Assembly (NCBI GenBank): GCA_964016885.1
Contig: OZ024741.1
Coordinates: 300,700,001-300,764,000 of the forward strand
Direction of reading: 5' to 3'
From: Eledone cirrhosa
Taxonomy: Eukaryota
Length of the DNA: 64,000 nucleotides
The translations under genes and the position numbers were made by a program. The notes under the pieces are model-generated. The model did no database searches. It saw nothing but the letters and a program-made list of their open reading frames with translations, and had not been told where the DNA came from. Every line of letters starts with the position of its first letter. The first letter of the stretch is position 1. Shown here piece after piece: positions 1-61,442 of this stretch.

Positions 1-1336
1 TACAGGCACACATATATATATGTACGTATCAGTTTTAGCGAACATTTATTATAATGTTCGCTTTGTTCGTTTGTAAACAAACGGACAGCCTGATTTATGC
101 CGTACGGTGTTAAGTCAACCAAGTCACATTTTTGTTCAACACTGACACAGGAACGATGTACTAGTTTCAAGCTTGTTAGCTATCATTCAGCACCGTATAC
201 CCTTCTGCCAGATGGTTGAACGTTCGAAAGTATATACTTTCCTTATGAAAATTAACGGATGAACAGCCTAATTTGCATATCGAGGGAGTTCAGTCGGCCA
301 GGCGCACCCAAAACGATAAAATGGAATAGAATGAAATGAAATTTCATTTCTCACTCTTAGTACGGCACTTTCTTAAATATAAGTATGTATGTATACGTAC
401 ATACATATATGTATACAGACGTACAGTAGCATGTATATATACATATATATATATATACATACAGGCACACATATATATATGTACGTATCAGTTTTAGCGA
501 ACATTTATTATAATGTTCGCTTTGTTCGTTTGTAAACCAACGGACAGCCTGATTTATGCCATACGGTGTTAAGGCAACCACGTCACCTTTTTGTTCAACA
601 CTGACACAGGAACGATGTACTAGTTTCAAGCTTGTTAGCTATCGTCTGCACCGTATACCCTTCTTCCAGATGGTTGAACGTTCGAAAGTATATACTTTCC
701 TTATGAAAATTAACGGCTGAGCAGCCTAATTTGCATATCGAGTGAGTTCAGTCAGCCAGGCGCACCGAAAACGATAAAATGGAATAGAATGAAATGAAAT
801 TTCATTTCTCACTCTTAAGACGGCACTTACTTAAATGTAAGTATGTATGTATACGTACATACATATATGTATACAGACGTACAGTAGCATGTATATATAT
901 ATATACATACAGGCACACATATATATATGTACGTATAAGTTTCAGCGAACATTTATTATAATGTTCACTTTGTTCGTTTGTAAACAAACGGACAGCATAA
1001 TTTATGCCGTACGGTGTTAAGGCAACCACGTCATCTTTTTGTTCAACAGTGACACAGGAACGATGTACTAGTTTCAAGCTTGTTAGCTATCGTCTGCACC
1101 GTATACCCTTCTGCCAGATGGTTGAACGTTCGAAAGTATATACTTTCCTTATGAAAATTAACGGCTGAGCAGCCTAATTTGCATATCGAGTGAGTTCAGT
1201 CGGCCAGGCGCACCGAAAACGATAAAATGGGATAGAATGAAATGAAATTTCACTTCTCACTCTTAGTACGGCGCTTACTTAAATGTAAGTATTTATGTAT
1301 ACGTACATACATATATGTATACAGACGTACAGTAGC

Positions 1337-1427
<91 letters not shown>

Positions 1428-1646
1428 CAGGCACACATACATATATGTACGTATCAGTTTTAGCGAACATTTATTATAATGTTCACTTTGTTCGTTTGTA
1501 AACAAACGGACAGCCTGATTTATGCCGTACGGTGTTAAGACAACCACGTAATCTTTTTGTTCAACACTGACACAGGAACGATGTACTAGTTTCAAGCTTG
1601 TTAGCTATCGTCAGCACCGTATACCCATCAGCCAGATGGTTGAACG
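1..1646 (-). repeat. Tandem array of ~450-520 bp units, each with a hammerhead ribozyme motif (retrozyme-like / tandem pLTR)
   Basis: The unit recurs at spacings of 459, 448 and 518 bp, varying mainly in an internal (TA)n. Hammerhead motifs lie on the minus strand at 153-196, 612-654, 1060-1102 and 1578-1620. The array continues off the left edge. Confidence 0.9.
1578..1620 (-). ncRNA. Type I minimal hammerhead ribozyme (canonical copy)
   Basis: Minus strand reads acggtg CTGACGA t-agct aaca agct-t GAAA ctag TA catcgt. Stem I is 6 bp with one GU, stem II is 4 bp, stem III is the palindrome ACTAGT, and the triplet is GUA. Confidence 0.85.
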
Positions 1647-1843
1647 TACGGTGCTCACGATAGCTAACAAGCTTGAAACTAGTACATCGTTCCTGTGTCA
1701 GTGTTGAACAAAAAGGTGACGTGGTTGCCTTAACACCGTACGGCATAAACAGGCTGTCCGTTTGTTTACAAACGAACAAAGCGAACATTATAATAAATGT
1801 TCGCTAAAACTGATACGTACATATATGTATGTGTGCCTATATG

Positions 1844-1941
<98 letters not shown>

Positions 1942-1993
1942 GCTACTGTACGTCTGTATACATATATGTATGTACATATACATACATACTTAC

Positions 1994-1995
<2 letters not shown>
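1647..1995 (+). repeat. Inverted partial copy of the array unit (foldback arm)
   Basis: Reverse complement of ~1283-1621 with a 25-nt spacer. It begins at hammerhead stem I (core mutated to CTCACGA) and ends in (TA)n. Confidence 0.9.
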
Positions 1996-2067
<72 letters not shown>

Positions 2068-3280: not shown

Positions 3281-3411
3281 AAGGTTAATATGGAAATGGG
3301 TTCTACAGAACTAGAACTGTTTCATTCAAAAGAAATCGCGAGGGCTTCTCTGATGATTTCCTTTGAATGAAACAGTCCTAGCCCTGCGTAATCAATTTCT
3401 ATATTAACCTT
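3281..3411 (+). mobile_element. Small foldback with degenerate hammerhead
   Basis: Imperfect arms at 3281-3337 and 3355-3411. Hammerhead-like agggct..CTGATGA tttc cttt gaat GAAA cag TC ct agccct at 3341-3385. Confidence 0.6.
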
Positions 3412-4489
3412 GAGATTCTTCTAATGTGCTGAGTACCTTACTAACTCTGGTTACCTCCAATTGAACACATTCATACACAGTCACACACACAAACACACAC
3501 ACGTGCACGTGTGTGTGACTGTATGTGAGTGGTTATTTAATATTTCGGTTCATATCTTATATGTCACGTAAAATATGTGAATGCACAATGCATGAATAAA
3601 TATTTGTAAAGCTGTAGCAGGTAAAGAGATTAACTTTACTCAGGAAGTTAAATTCTAATTTTTCAATCTAAAGATTGTATATAATATTTTTGTTTTTGAT
3701 ATTGTTTCTGATCATATCATTATGAATTTGATCTAATTTCTCTTAGTTCTTCAGCTATTATTCTGTATTCCTGTCATGTTCCAGTAGCAGCGGTACACAA
3801 TATCTCGTCGCCATAAAATCAAATTAGTAACGATTACTATGCAAACCATTTTCCCAATACAAGTTAATTGTATGATTGCGTTCATGAGAGCGAAATGTTT
3901 TTTCGAAAATAAACATCTTATTAGCAGCCACGAAGTATGTTTTCTTGAATTTATTTGTTTATTAATTTTCCTTGCTTTCCTGTCGTCTGATGTGATTTTA
4001 TGAGTGTAAAATATTGCTTTTTCCTATTTCAACCTATTTACAAATCGAAATATGAAGAAGAGTCAATAAAACAATGTAGTGGTCTTCAAATGTTTCAAAG
4101 GTTCTCGAGCAAAACAAATCAAGTAAAATATGCCCAGTGTAAAATGAAATCAAGCCATAGATAATACACACGCCTGGAGCCAATACCTACACTGAAATAC
4201 GCTATATATATATACAAATATATATACGCTTTATATATATACAAATAATTAATTCGGGATTCTTTTATTTTCTTGAATTTTGTATTAAAATATGTGTATG
4301 CAAATTGAAGTGGCATACTGTGTAGTATATTTGAGCCATATACATTCATTAAGGTGGTGAATTGGCAGAATCATTATGCAAAGGAAATGTCTCTCTAGAT
4401 GGATCACGTATATGGTGCAAACAGAGAGTTTGAATACAAATCCTTCACTGCTGAAATCACTGCAGCCTTGGGTGCAGTGGTGAGAGTCA

Positions 4490-7478: not shown

Positions 7479-7758
7479 GAACAAAAATATAATATTCGAA
7501 AAACTCAGATTACCTTTATTGTATTTAGCCACGTAGAGCGATAACTTTTTGTTAGTTATTTGAATATGGCAAAGTCGGCCATTAATCGCTCGTATACATG
7601 AAACTGACTGGCCTGTCTGCTAACTGGCTGAGCAGTGAATCTGCTAATATGTAGATCTGGCTGATCAGTCAGACTGCTAATATGCAAATCAGGCCGATCA
7701 GTCACTGTATATTTTAAATAAATCATATTTTTGTACTAGCTCTGACAGCTGGCAGGTG

Positions 7759-7819
7759 AACAGGGAACTACACTGATGAAGAGTATTCACCCAGAAACAT
7801 TAGTGTCTGCACTTCTGTT
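7759..7819 (+). ncRNA. Degenerate type I hammerhead ribozyme
   Basis: aacagggaactaca CTGATGA agagt attc accca GAAAC attagt GTC tgcacttctgtt. The core is intact and the stems are partly mismatched. Confidence 0.65.
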
Positions 7820-8639
7820 TACATGCCAACACAAAAGCAAGAAGGTGGGGGGGTCATTCTACAGGCATCGCTTAAAAAAGAGGCTTGTTTGCATAATTGC
7901 AAACGAATCGAATATTATCATCAATATTCGAAAAACGCAGATGACATCTTATATATATATTGTGTGTGTGTGTGCGTGTGTATGTGTGTGTGTGTGCCTA
8001 TGTGTGTGTGTACATATGTGTGTGTGTATATATATATATGTGCGAGTGTGTATGAATGTGTTTTAAGTAGTATAATTCTATAATACTTCTATGGGGATTA
8101 ATGTCTCGAAATTACACATTCTTTTGAAAATAAATATCACCGTCAATGCACATTTTCGTTATCAGATGCTTTCTTTTCCGGAAAGATACTTTAGGGATAT
8201 GCTTAATATTACTAATTCAGTATATCTATATTATAGAATATACATGTACATATAAATAGCATAACAGATAATCACTGAAAATCTAATTCTATACAAATGA
8301 GATACTTTTCGCCGAAGAAAATAGATTTCAAAAGTTTACAATATCTATGCTGTTGTCTTTTGATGTATCTAATAAAACCTTTTAAAAAAGTGATAGATTT
8401 TATAGAATCGAAGCAAACATTACAAAAACTAGATATTTTGTATGAAATTCTGTAGTGAAGAGAATATATATATGCGTATGAATAAATTAATAGAATACAT
8501 ATTATGTCCCTATATGGTTAAACAATAAAATGAAATTTTCTTATTTTGTGTACTTGAATTTAGCAGATTGTAAAGAAACATATACATATATATATGGAAA
8601 GACACTCTTATTTGAAGTGACATTTGACAATCTTATTTA

Positions 8640-30799: not shown

Positions 30800-31275
30800 T
30801 GTATATGTATTTGAATTTCTTATTTCTAAAGAAATACGGTATGTTTATATATAAACATTTAGAAAGACGTATCTATGCTAAAGCACTAGCAGCTAACGCC
30901 ACCCAGCGGTGTCCAGCAGGAGCAAGTGGGACAATCGTTGATGAATTTCGAACAGCTATGTTTGAAGCTAAATTCTAATTCTATTCTATTATATGTTGAG
31001 CCAACTTATACAGCTTCATATACAAATGAGATTAATAACTTCATTTACACAGACGAAAAAAACTATATATTTTCAAAGTCTAAGAGCGGAAGTGATCGTC
31101 CTGACGAGAATCAATTCAGTTCGAAACGCGTCGACGATTGTCTCCCTTACTGCTGCTGGACACCGCTAGGTGGCGTTAGCTGCTAGTATTGATACACAGC
31201 GTATTTTTTTAGAAATATGAAATTCAAGTACATATTTCTATACAGCTATGTTCAAAGCTAAATTCTAATTCTATT
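30800..31275 (+). mobile_element. 290-bp hammerhead unit with partial tandem repeat and inverted 5' arm
   Basis: 30952-30985 recurs at 31242-31275. 30885-30953 is inverted to 31119-31187, and 30803-30838 is inverted to 31200-31236. Confidence 0.85.
31092..31141 (+). ncRNA. Type I minimal hammerhead ribozyme, intact consensus
   Basis: gtgatcgtc CTGACGA gaat caattca gttc GAAA cgcg TC gacgattgt, with a GUC triplet and palindromic ACGCGT. Confidence 0.9.
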
Positions 31276-31575
31276 ATATATATATATATGTTTTCTCTTT
31301 TCTTCTCTTTTCCCTTTTATTTTCCTTCCCTTCTATTTTCCTTCCCTCCCTGATCCGTTTTCCCAATAACTTACACAATCATTGAACGCTGTGGGCGGTT
31401 TGTGGGCGGTAGATATCTTGTCTTTAAAGTGTGAAAATATCCAAGACCCCAGTAGACAACTGATGATGAAAGCCCCCCCCCCCCCACGTTCTTGCTTTCT
31501 TCTTATTCTCACTCCATTTTAAACTACCTTAACTACCAACTATTCTCCATATATATATATATATATATATATATA

Positions 31576-32919: not shown

Positions 32920-33236
32920 TAAGAGAAATGTTGCACAAAGCTTCACTACCGACCATTGGGTCTGATACTGTTACATATGATAGTGCTGTTGAGAGAAGTG
33001 TTAAAATAAGCTTCACTACCGACCATTGGGTCCTATACTCTTACATATGATAGTGCTGTTGAGAGAAGTGTTAAACTAAGCTTCACTACCAACCATTAGG
33101 TCTGATACTCTTACATACATTAGTGCTGTTGACAGATGTGTTGCACAAAGCTTCACTACTGACTATTGGATGTGTAATGTTACATATGATAGTGCTGTTA
33201 AGAGAAGTGTTAAACTAAGCTTTACTACCGACCATT
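32920..33236. repeat. 70-bp minisatellite, ~4.5 copies
   Basis: aagcttcactaccgaccatt... recurs at about 32938, 33008, 33078, 33148 and 33218. Confidence 0.95.
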
Positions 33237-49900: not shown

Positions 49901-52742
49901 CTTACTAGCGCGCAAGGGCTACAGAGAACGTATTAGCGAACTAGTTAAGCGGACGTTGACGGGGGCCATCGTCAACAACAAATGGTGGTTTGCTCTGAAA
50001 AGAGCCATTAGAATATAGTCCATTAGTTTAGTAAGGCTTTAGCTATAGAGAAAAATAGAGCAGAGGGAGAACTAGTTAGAAAATTAGCAAAGGCATCGCG
50101 ACGTCCGTCGCGATGCCTTTGCGAAATTGGCCCTTGACCAATTCTTCAATGCAAAGCACGAAGGCTGTGTTGTCAGAGCTAGGGTGCGTGCTCTCAGACA
50201 CGCGGGAGCGAAAGCCGTTGAATGGGCTCGAGTGGCGGAGGCGCGTCGTGGCAACAAATCCACGATCCAGTCTCTGCTGGACCACGACGGGCGCATGCTA
50301 CTCGATCCCGGGCAAATGTGTGAAGCTTTTCAGCGACACTTCGCACGGCTGTTCGGGCGCAGCGGCGGGCCAGATCGAGAGATGGACTTCAGTGTCTACC
50401 TCTACGGACTGCCGCAGCTCTCGGCCAGTGAGGCGGAGTGTTGCGAAAAGCCGATAACAGCCGCTGAAGTACGCGAGGCAATGACAGGCTGCACAAGGGG
50501 TAAATCGCCTGGATTGGATAGTCTGCCCTATGAACTTTACGTACAGATGCCACACTTGTTCGGAGGCCTCTTGGCGGACGTCTACTGCAACTGGCAACAG
50601 AACCGGAGAATTCCCAGCTCTGTGAGCCGAGGAGCTGTGGCGCTGCTGAGAAAGGATCCGAACCAGGGGAATATCATAGATAATTTCAGGCCCATAACTC
50701 GGTTAAACACAGAGTTCAAGATTTTGGCCAAGGTGCTAGCAAAGAGGTTGGCGCTTGTCGTTGGTGGTCTGGTGGGAGAGGCTCAGACATGCGCCATTCC
50801 CGACAGATCCATCCACGACAACCTCCACCTCATGCTATACATCGTAGAGAGGGTAGCTAGGGAACCTGGCACGGGTGGGTCCCTGATCAATTTCGAAAGC
50901 TTTCTATAGGGTCGACCATCGTCACCTAGCGGCAGTCCTGAGGGCGGCTGGCTTTGGGCCCGTCTTCAGAAGCTGGATCGCTGCCATGCACAGCGACATC
51001 TGCTCTGTGGTGAGAGTGAACGGTCACCTTTCGGAACCGTTCAACCGCCAAGGATGTCCCCTCTCGTCCCTCTTGTACGTATTGACTCTCTAGCCATTAC
51101 TGCACGAACTGGAGAAGTTGAGGGGGGTCCCGCGCGAACTAGGATGCGGTAGATCCGTGTCAGAATATGCGGACGATGTCACCGTAGTGGTGTCGAACGC
51201 CAAACACATCGAGGCGATCGGCACTACACTAAGAGAATACGAAGCGGTGACAGGAACAATGATCAACCAGGAAAAGTCAGTGGGCCTGCAGCTCGGCACC
51301 TGGAGAGACAGGTCCATGCCGTCCAACAGCGTCGTCGGGCGCTGGACGGACGACCAGTTAAATTGCTAGCGGTCTGGTTCGGTCCGGACCTCCAGACGGA
51401 CAAAAACTGGGACGAGGTGACGAGCAGGGTGGCTTCTCTCACCCAGAAATGGGTGGAGAGGAAGATATCCCTGAAAGGTCGAGCGGAGGTGGCTAACGCG
51501 TTCATCGCGTCCGTCATCTACTACCGCCTGACCGTCGTACCTTGTCCTAAGCCCCCCCCCCCCCCTTACTGCGCTGGAGCGTTTTCTCTTTCGCTTTTTG
51601 TGGAAGGGACGCGCTCCGATTGTCAGGCGGTCCATCTGCTGTCAACACCCGTTACGTGTAGGGCTGGGCATGCCGTGGCTGATGAAGCGCAGACACGCGC
51701 TCTCGCAACAACATCTCCACTTTCTTCCTCGACGTGAACAGGTGAGGTCGCAGTTTGCTAGACGCGTCTCTCCCGAGCTCGTCTCCTTGACGGAGCTGCA
51801 GTCCTGGGTCAAGCGAAGACCGAGACGGTGCGCTTGGAGAATGGAATGTCTTAAGGCGCTCACAGCCCTCGACCAATCGGGCAATGTGATCGGTGGAAAC
51901 TCCACCCTGGCGTTCTATAGAGGATTAGTGGAGGGGAAGAGCTACGACGTACTTGGAGAAACTCTAGGCGTCGACGAAAATCAACTAGCCAATCTCTTCG
52001 GAAGAACTTCCGGGCTGGGGCCTATGGGCAACTTTCAGAAATCCCTGGCCTGGCAGTGCTACAGAGGAGCTTTGCCAGTTCGGGATAAACTCTACAGGCA
52101 TGGAGGTGCCGTCAGCCGGGCATGTCCGAGATGCGCGCAGGGCGACGAAACCGTCCTGCACGCACTCGTCCAGTGTCCGAGCATTGCTGACTTGTGGGTT
52201 ATATGTCGAACACGTGTAGGACGGATCCAGCTATCAGCTGAGTCCATCGTGAGGATTTCCCCGCCCTCTTCCTTTAGCCGGGAAGGGCAGGCAGTTTTTA
52301 TCTGTCTGGTGGCCATGGCAAAAGAGATAGTATGGTGGACACGTTTGAAAGGGCTGAAGACGAGCACTTACCTTTTCAGTGATGCCCTGATTAACTTTTT
52401 CAAATTTCATTTGAAAAGGAAAATCAGGGTAGAGAGGGAAGTGCTCTCTTCCCAGCATTTTGTTGAAAGATGGGTGAGAGAAGCAAGTATGTAAATTAAA
52501 GGTGGAAAACTGGGAGAGGGCACTTGCCCTGGTGGTCAGGGTCACTGTGGCCTTTTAATGGGCTTTCTCCACAAATGTCCGTCGGAAGTCTCCCCCCTAT
52601 TGGGGAATTTTTCATTGTTATTTTTTGTTACATCCTGTCTTTGTTTTTTTCCACGCAGAAATGCCCATTTGTACCGTCCTGTATTGTCCTGTACTGTCCT
52701 TAATGTCTAATTTATGTAAACCCTTGTGGTTAATAAAGAAAG
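46965..52742 (+). mobile_element. L1-Tx1 clade LINE, near full length, decayed
   Basis: ORF1 with a degenerate knuckle (RKPRCVVYGKGTHLKAFCP), ORF2, a 3' AATAAA and (ATT)n on both flanks. The 5' boundary is uncertain. Confidence 0.85.
49155..52494 (+). pseudogene. Tx1 ORF2: APE endonuclease, RT, C-terminal zinc motif
   Basis: SINARGL, ISET, VAVYAP, YLDR, TDH, GKSPGLDSLPYE, NFRPITRLN, RQGCPLS, YADDV and CPRC..ETVLHALVQCP, with stops and frameshifts. Confidence 0.92.
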
Positions 52743-57746: not shown

Positions 57747-60507
57747 ACAGGAGGCTGGACTGGGGAAATCCTTGAAAGGTTTATTATACTATGATCATTT
57801 CAATAACCGGGTTCCATATGAATCTGGTGATATCATCAGGTATTGGAATATAACAAAGGAATGTGTAAAAAGCGATGGGTCCGAAAAACCATGGGTCCGA
57901 GAAACCAGAGACAGAGAGGGCGGCCGATCAACTAGCTTCTCAGCCAGCCGCCCTCAAAGTGTTGGCAACCGAAAACTACCAGTGAATATCTGGTAAGGGG
58001 GGCGCAGGCTTATCATGTACTACCACCACGCCGTCAAAGAAGAAGGGGAAAAAAGAAAGAAAGGGAGAAAGAAGTGTAGTGTAAGGGTCAAACTACATTC
58101 ATGTTAGAAAATGCCGTGAAAAAAATGCTACCCAAAGAATCTATAGTGGGTGTCTGTATGGTCTAATGTGTGAACCGAAGATTGGAACGTTTAACCTATG
58201 TTGCGATTTATAGGATGAAATAAATTAAATTAAAAATATTATATTGCAAAATGGTAAATTGAAAAATAGAGGTAGCGAGATTTATTTATTTAACGAACTT
58301 ACGGAGAGAATCTTATATGAAAAATTTTTTTTTTTTATTTAACTCGATAAGATATTAGGATGGGATATAGAGTAAAGATTTCGATTGGGAGTCCCAGCCA
58401 GCACACCCACCACCATGCGTCAGCCAGTCTCGAGTGGTATCGTCCAGCGAAAGAAATGGAAATTAATTTTTCCGAGTACTCTAGGAACGTAGCTAACTTT
58501 GGCCCCGGGATCGCTAGCGGGAAGCCCACAATTTCGACAGGCCATCGTCTATACCACGAATACTATTTATTAAATCACACATTAGGGGGGGGGGGTATTT
58601 ACGTGTCAATAGAGGCATGATACAGCTAATAGTTGTGCCCAAACCTGGAGTTTGTGGGTACAGGTATAATTAGGCGGCCAAAACAGGTGGCGCGGTGGGA
58701 CTGGAGCAGAGCAAGCCACTCCGAGTAATTTCATTTACCTAAAGAGGAGAAATTTATTTTTCCGAGCACTCAAGGAAGGCTGAACTTTCCGAGTGCCCAG
58801 CGCGCAGCCGGGAAAAAGCCACCACTCAAGTCAAACAATGAAAAGTGCAAATAGATCAAAATTATTTTAAATTATTTTAAAGTCCTAGTTAGTCCGCGTT
58901 ATAGGTAGTGTGGTTCTTAGGTGGGTAGGGGGCTATGAAGGTGCATAATGACCTGAGTAAGGAAAAGTTACTAAAAAATACCAATACATTGATAAAAATA
59001 TATTAATAAAATAATAGAAAATAATAAAATAATAAAATATACATTAATGAGATAGTAAAAAAATTAATAAAGGTAAATAAGAGTCAATATAGATCAAGTT
59101 GTAGTAAGATAATATAAGTTGTACATATAGATACAGATATATAGGATGGAGGAGATGGAATGGTAACAGATTGTACCTAGTATAAAGTTCGGGTTCCGAA
59201 TTCAGTGCGAGTCACAAAAAGTCCTGAGGTATAGAGTAGAGAATACAGTCAATACAATACAAGCTTTAGTATAATACGTAGAGTTTTGTCCGAATCGGAA
59301 TCCTTCCGACAAGGAAGTGGTATCAGGTGGCGGTAGATAAGGCGCAGAGCAGCCAAAGTCCGAATGGCAAGTAGATCAGTTAATCCCATGCTGGTAATAG
59401 CTGTACACTGAAGTCAGTGCCGCTGTTCAATATTACATTTTGAAGTGCTCAACATTATAGGAGCATTATTTCTTAAGGTTTGTTGGTTCACCACTGGATA
59501 GAACTGGTCATTCCGTATGGTCAATCCTGGTGTAATATTGTGAAGAGTACTCAACGCAGTGCAGTTTACCCACCTTCGTTTGTGTAGTTGGTGGTGCGAA
59601 TACGGAGTTAATTATAAATTAAATAACAGGAGGCTGGACTGGTGTAAATCCTTGAAAGGTTTATTATACTATGATCATTTCAATGAAGGGTTCCATATGA
59701 ATGCTGGCTGGGACTCCCAATCGAAATCTTTACTCTATATCCCATCCTAATATCTTATCGAGTTAAATAAAGAAAATTTTTTTCATATCAGATTCTCTCC
59801 GTAAGTTCGTTAAATAAATAAATCTCGCTACCTCTATTTTTCAATTTACCATTTTGCAATATATTTTTAATTTAATTTATTTCATCCTATAACTCGCAAC
59901 ATAAGTTTAACGTTCCAATCTTCGGTTCACACATTAGACCATACAGACACCCACTATAGATTCTTTGGGTAGCATTTTTTTCGCGGCATTTTCTAACATG
60001 AATGTAGTTTGACCCTTACACTACACTTGTTTCTCCCTTTCTTTCTTTTTTCACCTTCTTCTTTGACGGAGTGGTGGTAGTACATGATAGGCCTGCGCCC
60101 CCTGACCAGATATTCACTGGTAGTTTTTGGTTGCCAACACTGTGAGGGCGGCTGGCTGAGAAGCTAGTTGATCGGCCGCCCTCTCTGTCTCTGGTTTCTC
60201 GGACCCATGGTTTTTCGGACCCATGGCTTTTTACACATTCCTTTGTTATATTCCAATACCTGATGATATCACCGGATTCATATGGAACCCGGTCATTGAA
60301 ATGATCATAGTATAATAAACCTTTCAAGGATTTACCCCAGTCCAGCCTCCTGTTATTTAATTTATAATTAACTCCGTATTCGTACCACCAACTACACAAA
60401 CGAAGATGTGTGAACTGCACTGCGTTGAGTACTCTTCACAATATTACACCAGGATTGAACATACGGAATGACCAGTTCTATCCAGTGGTGAACCAACAAA
60501 CCTTAAG

Positions 60508-60508: not shown

Positions 60509-60530
<22 letters not shown>

Positions 60531-60538
<8 letters not shown>

Positions 60539-61433
60539 TAAACGGAATAGAAAATGCTGACAAATTGTTCACAGTGAAAAATAGTTTAATTAGGAATAAG
60601 TGATAATTAGTAATAGTATTGGTTAGTATTAAGTTTTGGTTTTAAGTTTTACCGGTTGCGCATTTCTAATGCTTTTCAAAAATAATTTTGAGATAGAGCG
60701 TCCGTGATGTTTGCTCTGATCAGATTAGTTTTGGGAATTCTACCTGTTTTTATGTTAAAAAAGTGGCTCCAGCGGTATTAAAATAAGTTTTGCGCCAATT
60801 CGTGTTGCAAAAATTCTTGTGGTCAAAACAATTTTGATTGGTCGGTAGAGGTCATGTGAATGTAAAAACTCCATTTTGCGCCAAATGTAGGTTTGTGTCG
60901 GCTGACTGAGAGATAAGTCTTTCACAACAAATATGTGTGTGTAGTAGTAGTAAAGAGGTTCGTTGTTGTGATAATGGTCAGCAGGGATGTGTGTGCGAAC
61001 CTCTTTACTACTACTACACACACACACACACATTTGTTGTGAAAGACTTATCTCTCAGTCAGCCGACACAAACCTACATTTGGCGCAAAATCAATTTTTT
61101 ACATTCTCATGACCTCTACCGACCAATCAAAATTGTTTTGACCACAAGAATTTTTGCAATACGAATTGGCGCAAAACTTATTTTAATACCGCTGGAGCCA
61201 CTTTTTAAACATAAAAACAGGTAGAATTCCCAAAACTAATCAGATCAGAGCAAACATCACGGACGCTCTATCTCAAAATTATTTTTGAAAAGTATTAGAA
61301 ATGCGCAACCGGTAAAACTTAAAACCAAAACTTAATACTAACCAATACTATTACTAATTATCACTTATTCCTAATTAAACTATTTTTCACTGTGAACAAT
61401 TTGTCAGCATTTTCTATTCCGTTTACCAATATA
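60531..61433. repeat. Foldback: ~435-bp arms, 33-nt spacer (inverted pLTR-like 5' end of the adjacent Penelope element)
   Basis: 60531-60962 versus 60996-61433. The right arm runs directly into the PLE ORF. Confidence 0.92.
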
Positions 61434-61442
61434 TCATAACTT

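Follow-up and report, generated by a model that had tools for sequence, protein, structure and literature searches.

Hammerhead ribozymes occur at two places of the analysed window, the whole stretch of 64,000 nucleotides from Eledone cirrhosa (C2, positions 300700001-300764000 of a 3.0-Gb genome), each preceded by an octamer and by the heptamer CTGGCAG, which raises the question of whether these repeats carry a promoter of their own and, if so, which polymerase would read it. A sequence-only reading had proposed that both motifs, placed at identical spacing before two different hammerheads, form a conserved internal promoter. The motifs and distances are as described: TATGCAAAT lies at 279-271 on the minus strand and at 7681-7689 on the plus strand, CTGGCAG (211-205 and 7749-7755) follows 59 nt on at both loci, and the CTGANGA...GAAAC hammerhead core begins 14 nt after the heptamer in the array on the minus strand and 17 nt after it at the 7681-7755 locus. 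The flank of 271-279 is taggctgttcatcc, and the one quoted for it, taggctgctcagcc, is that of the copies at 737 and 1185, of which the former reads CTGGAAG, not CTGGCAG. The pattern TATGCAAAT-N57..61-YTGGCAG was found three times in the window (205-279, 1111-1185 and 7681-7755), against 0.00 times in 100 shuffles. Three further TATGCAAAT sites (4297, 11282 and 11779) have no hammerhead behind them; one of these, 4297-4368 on the plus strand, with the octamer followed after 56 nt by TTGGCAG, was considered as a third member and rejected as a chance look-alike.

The features of both loci, together with those of a third element, are collected in Table 1. The array, made of family A units, has (TA)n at both outer ends, and the U6-type box of its other copies is located at 726-737 and 1174-1185. 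The core of copy 1 carries a 1-nt insertion (CTGAATGA), its stem III being the palindromic ACTAGT; the cores of copies 1-3 are mutated, and copy 4, with an intact core, ends before its promoter region. At the second locus, occupied by family B, the hammerhead has its core at 7773-7779 and GAAAC at 7794-7798, with a predicted cut after 7807, and the TATA word has decayed. The third element, of family G, extends over 31019-31290 on the plus strand, with an inverted piece near 30880-30955; another genomic copy of this family has an intact box.

Table 1. Coordinates of ribozyme-associated features in the window (positions of the whole stretch)
Feature	Position	Strand	Remark
Family A tandem array	1-1647	-	Some 3.6 units, 448-518 bp long; 5' truncation near 1647
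Copy 1 hammerhead (type I, stem I extended)	134-221	-	Predicted cut between 159 and 158
CTGGCAG, copy 1	205-211	-	5' arm of distal hammerhead stem I (fold); predicted start region, A206 inferred as TATA+30
TATA-like box TATATA	231-236	-	Offset of 43 nt from the first base of the octamer box; centre of a palindrome
U6-type upstream box TATGCAAATTAG, array copy 1	268-279	-	Same 12-mer class as host U6, U6atac and MRP at -77/-79
Pair of T4 runs shortly upstream of the following box	310-321	-	Candidate Pol III terminator
Family A arm, inverted and 5'-truncated, with terminal (TA)n	1647-1995	+	Penelope-type head-to-head insertion
Family B insertion, complete (one unit preceded by a partial repeat)	7491-7952	+	Inside a TA/CA microsatellite
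Putative family B promoter block, 33-bp octamer repeat	7624-7692	+	Last box TATGCAAATCAG at 7681-7692
TCAGT	7698-7702	+	Resembles the -57 box of host U1/U2/U5 genes
Decayed family B hammerhead	7749-7828	+	TGGCA pairs with TGCCA (7824-7828), predicted fold
Third sister family G, mutated box TATACAAATGAG, TATA, core at 31101	31019-31160	+	Sequence

A first look at the genome yielded 2,242 candidates for family A and 1,753 for family B, from which 40 per family were scored and the best 30 of each compared. In family A the motif and its spacing recur, with a gap of 59 nt in 29/30 copies (the remaining one was unparsed) and CTGGCAG in 26/30; in family B they do not, the heptamer being TTGGCAG in 24/30 copies and CTGGCAG only in the window's own, and the gap being 60 nt in 20 copies, 57 in 5, 58 in 2, 59 in 2 and 61 in 1. 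The C at 7749 is a change private to the window copy, the family B state being T, and CTGGCAG and 59 nt occur together in 1/30 family B copies, that of the window. The identity of heptamer and distance was consequently rejected as a conserved signal, and the exact match between both loci is, by the copies compared, an accident added to common descent.

That descent is apparent from the consensus sequences. Families A and B align with a score of 124, against 39.7+-6.8 and a maximum of 71 in 500 shuffles; the part 3' of the ribozyme alone scores 63 and the octamer plus 14 nt scores 30 (0/1000 shuffles reach either value), and the part upstream of the octamer scores 14, which 899/1000 shuffles reach. 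A and B are sister families of high-copy non-LTR retrozymes, alignable over most of the unit, and the octamer layout is thus common to them by descent, so that the two ribozymes do not represent the independent cases they had been taken for. The sequence between octamer and heptamer is largely dissimilar, as had been noted: alignment of the distal spacer is not significant (score 19, reached by 166/1000 shuffles).

Nor did the heptamer hold up as a second promoter box. In the predicted folds of A, B and F, the partner of TGGCA is TGCCA or TGTCA on the 3' side of stem I; families C, E and G, from which CTGGCAG is absent, have other complementary pairs at the same position. Since TGGCA folds into stem I, the heptamer is predicted to be kept as ribozyme stem and start region rather than as a factor-binding box.

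The combination of octamer and ribozyme is widespread in the genome. At 32,925 sites the octamer ATGCAAAT precedes a hammerhead core by 72-100 nt (the reversed pattern gave 3), and a pattern with A/G after the octamer (496 sites, 0 in the control) revealed families D, E, F and G; core-like matches as a whole number 122,752 genome-wide, some counted twice (control 2,614). The box-ribozyme layout is present in at least seven families or subfamilies. Across seven family references, 11 of the first 12 box-anchored columns are invariant, although the invariance of the octamer in C-G is partly by construction, since these families were found with the octamer in the query, and most later columns vary; a TATA word is present in 7/7 references, starting 43-46 nt after the first base of the box. 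Many hammerheads have no box, as found in an octamer-blind sample and in 274 kb of contiguous sequence, where the 14 cores comprise 6 boxed ones (0-1 mismatch), 2 truncated family A arms, 2 of family I and 4 others. Cores without a box also occur in the window, at 3350 and 39452 on the plus strand; the one at 3350 represents a very common type, which is frequently found within small inverted repeats and probably corresponds to Penelope-type ends.

The family copies carry a type I hammerhead, recognised by pattern and folding (core and stems I-III), the window copies being partly decayed; an Rfam scan of the window at E<=1 returned no hammerhead, only microRNA-model and similar matches on dinucleotide repeats. 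Units measure 430-466 bp, GC is 0.34 over window positions 1-2000, and there is no ORF of 120 aa over either the A or the B locus. These repeats are short, low in GC, non-coding, tandem or dispersed and of high copy number, the features by which retrozymes are recognised. They share with the metazoan non-LTR retrozymes, as presented in the available parts of two descriptions (Cervera and de la Pena, 2020, PMC7229834; bioRxiv 10.64898/2026.07.22.740005), the type I hammerhead, short low-GC tandem units without an ORF, a range from monomers to long arrays, and the proposed Penelope-like mobilisation; they differ in unit length, which is about 170-400 nt in the latter. Within the same available text, no unit promoter is described: the word 'promoter' appears twice in PMC7229834, both times for T7, and never in the bioRxiv manuscript.

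The promoters of the host's own snRNA genes offer a comparison for the octamer. The box TATG(C/G)(A/T)AATNAG at -77/-79, with TATA at -30, was found in 12/20 U6 loci, in the top U6atac locus (1/10) and in the single MRP gene; the box is interrupted in 6/20 U6 loci and absent from 2/20, and 9/10 U6atac loci lack it, loci with a broken or missing box being taken as retrocopies. In a U6 array on C19, the -78 box is interrupted in 6 copies by an insert resembling a common short interspersed repeat. Conversely, no exact octamer lies within 300 nt upstream of U1/U2/U5 in any of 26 distinct upstream regions, and U2 was rejected as a model for the octamer, its genes being devoid of it. The 14 U1/U2/U5 genes measured have YCARY at -55/-58 in 14/14, an AATTA box at -88/-91 in 13/14 and, by a strict pattern, TATA near -30 in 13/14. 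The same order (AATTA near -89, then YCAGT at -57, then TATA at -30) was observed across the host Pol II snRNA loci (L103-L121, L061-L072, L148-L150 and L243-L262). Their AATTAAAT box, with the same AAAT end as the Pol III box, is more distal than the latter by about one helical turn. In the distal octamer enhancer of vertebrate type, the POU site is near -220; this role was rejected for the octamer, as the box occupies -77/-79 in the host genes and, counted from the predicted start of the elements, about -73/-74. Judged by sequence, the octamer in this genome is the -78 box of Pol III type-3 genes.

A Pol III matrix was built from 5 host Pol III boxes and applied with 100 mononucleotide shuffles per element. 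The 10 box-bearing elements scored 12.7-20.5 bits, with TATA 42-46 nt on (p 0.01-0.02), and 0/8 hammerheads without a box reached p<0.13. Following these results, we consider it highly probable that the units carry a working, built-in promoter of snRNA-gene type, a prediction within which reading by Pol III takes the larger part and reading by Pol II the smaller. Of the internal promoter first proposed, what stands is that a promoter of this type best explains the octamer, and what falls is the role of CTGGCAG, the exact 59 nt and the independence of both loci. We favour as probable a captured U6-type promoter, comprising the box and the TATA-like box and presumably read by Pol III.

The strongest competitor is a Pol II snRNA-type promoter, in which YCAG at -57 and TATA at -30 would set the start and the octamer would be an adjacent activator site. 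In A, B and F, TCAG and TATA are 26-28 nt apart, like in host U1/U2/U5, transcripts are predicted to begin with A, like U1 and U2, Pol II would pass T-runs, and the Pol II snRNA layout suits families B and F as well (p 0.01-0.04), in a test in which one control likewise reached p 0.04, at a misplaced position. The tandem families H and I, which lack the octamer, fit only the U1/U2/U5 layout (p 0.03 and 0.01); these two families, H having a 311-bp tandem unit, show YCAGT, 26-27 nt and TATAAG at G000:C1:1239857-1244284 and at four other loci. Against this, the Pol II matrix fails for A, A2, C, D, E and G (p 0.06-0.62), and the octamer is missing from all the host Pol II snRNA upstream regions considered above. 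Weighing these data, we regard a Pol II promoter as possible but unlikely for the boxed units. A more tentative idea, to which we give somewhat less than even chances, is that the genome holds two parallel hammerhead radiations, one having captured a Pol III (U6-type) and the other a Pol II (U1/U2/U5-type) promoter; if true, B and F, with both boxes and a shortened distance from box to TATA, would be hybrids, forming a natural series for the choice of polymerase by snRNA promoters.

The ends of the insertions bear on the same choice. Among 3' ends flanked by (TA)n, those at or before the T-run amount to 46/46 in A (unit positions 293-412), 34/36 in B (268-312), 11/11 in C (362-435) and 28/29 in A2 (330-390), the A and A2 sets overlapping in part; ends without a following (TA)n (A 16, B 38, C 6, A2 25), likely alignment breaks or nested inserts, were set aside. 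These ends fall in the stretch that separates the 3' hairpins from the T-run, and hardly any lie in the promoter region, despite the TA microhomology in promoter and ribozyme; family A insertions stop at or before the first of the two T4 runs at 310-321. Several families also show a short interspersed repeat inserted repeatedly in the ATTATT loop of the 3' hairpin (nine loci). The halt of the insertions at the T-run speaks against Pol II. A, A2 and B have no T4 run from the predicted start to position 296-407, and F has none to 330. In E (T8, T6) and G (T5-T7), T-runs occur about 90-120 nt after the core and the insert continues past them, and all 11 3' ends of C lie beyond a first T5 in the copy used; a T-run terminator after a T-run-free transcript thus fits A, A2, B and F, fits C in part, and does not fit E and G. 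Family B further counts against Pol III, as it must pass a long T-run to carry its promoter.

With these data in mind, we propose that transcription by Pol III from the captured U6-type promoter would proceed as follows. The upstream box TATGCAAATNAG of the unit would be the promoter element, and since TATA lies at -30 in the host genes, the start is predicted at the A/G of CTGGCAG: counting 30 nt from TATA leads to unit position 73-75, which in A, A2, B, E, F and G is the A of CAG, while the distance from the box would give position 78-80, and both positions belong to the 5' arm of stem I. The majority of transcripts would end at the T-run immediately preceding the box of the next unit. A promoter located upstream of the start can be carried only by RNA that reads through tandem copies; such RNA would contain the next promoter internally, the hammerhead would trim its 5' end, and a Penelope-type reverse transcriptase would copy the trimmed RNA into (TA)n. 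Tandem read-through and trimming would be the way in which an upstream promoter survives retrotransposition.

The marks of Penelope-type insertion are present, namely 5' truncation, an inverted arm, partial tandems and the (TA)n target, which are shared with Penelope-like insertions as given in the available part of PMC8557442; the units differ from these elements by the lack of a coding region. Among 30 of the 150 GIY-YIG loci that were scored, out of 10,597 candidates, no autonomous Penelope-like partner with terminal homology was found, and the matches resembled neighbouring insertions. Because the 3' ends are bounded, a linear template fits better than a circle, and ends at the T-run would suit a linear RNA ending in oligo-U; alternatively, the reverse transcriptase may start at a set distance from the 3' hairpins. 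In family B, 12/30 5' truncations fall within 20 nt after the predicted cut (p 1.5e-5 versus uniform), as expected if the template is cleaved; this pile-up is absent in A (1/16) and A2 (1/18). Family A combines a short palindromic stem III, long arrays and no cluster after the cut, and this type of stem III is reported to need dimers (PMC6765202, available part). The 5' truncation points were also tried as a proxy for the start site and gave no support, the interval 66-87 holding 5/16 in A, 2/18 in A2, 2/30 in B and 0/4 in C.

A second alternative is that the layout was merely inherited or kept for RNA structure, with the units read through from neighbouring promoters and the octamer inert. 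The homology of A and B is in agreement with this, and so are the location of the TATA word in a palindrome, a stem I that spans the predicted start (in the folds of A and F it pairs to about 15 nt upstream of it), and the distance from box to TATA, which is unlike that of the host genes: 43-46 nt in the elements versus 47-49 nt in 5/5 host promoters used, that is, 2-6 nt shorter, the host spacing occurring in no family reference. In insects, this spacing is conserved to 1-2 bp, according to the available part of PMC1761439. However, the 12-mer hardly varies among families that can no longer be aligned in their spacers, it matches three unrelated classes of host Pol III genes at a similar distance from TATA, it is tripled in the 33-bp repeat of family B, and the tandem families without the octamer, H and I, carry the other host snRNA layout. 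An inert octamer is accordingly improbable in our view, even though RNA structure, through the palindromic TATA-like word and a stem I extending upstream, may explain part of the conservation. A chance meeting of two short words in AT-rich DNA, which would explain as chance changes both the exact distance of 59 nt and the C that opens CTGGCAG in the B copy, and also the ribozyme-less look-alike at 4297, is refuted for the layout as a whole by the genome-wide and window counts given above.

Built-in promoters have been encountered in other hammerhead repeats. That of newt satellite 2, attributed to Coats, Zhang and Epstein in 1994, reportedly consists of an octamer and a PSE. The Sm-alpha promoter of Schistosoma is tRNA-like, with A and B boxes. 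According to the available part of PMC2220036, the snRNA promoter of newt satellite 2 is read by Pol II and the schistosome repeat has a Pol III promoter. Newt satellite 2 thus shares with the present units a hammerhead tandem repeat with an internal snRNA-type promoter (predicted in the present units), whereas here the box matches that of host Pol III type-3 genes and comes with a TATA, and the octamer is missing from the Pol II snRNA genes of the host. The SINE-like Sm-alpha repeats share with the layout proposed here a Pol III promoter placed before the hammerhead, and since this promoter comes to lie at the 3' end of cleaved units, tandem copies are needed (PMC6765202, available part); the units described here differ in having an upstream U6-type box and TATA. 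The principle therefore has precedents in newts and schistosomes. A literature search, outside which most subscription papers lay, returned no report of a U6-type promoter in hammerhead repeats and no paper on cephalopod snRNA promoters. The available parts of PMC7229834 and bioRxiv 10.64898/2026.07.22.740005 leave the transcription of animal retrozymes open, and the box shared with host U6-type genes provides a testable answer, in terms of box, TATA, start and terminator, for tens of thousands of copies. Further, the U6-type and U1-type promoter layouts of this animal are outlined, which would be useful for driving guide RNAs.

Other features of the window include a Pfam zf-RVT match at 51532-52491, within the frame 51532-52494 on the plus strand (15 of 39 long frames were scanned), likely an unrelated LINE fragment, and two pairs of 97% inverted repeats, 57762-58239 / 59861-60337 (arms of about 480 nt) and 60530-60952 / 61012-61434 (423 nt), which are probably other transposon insertions.
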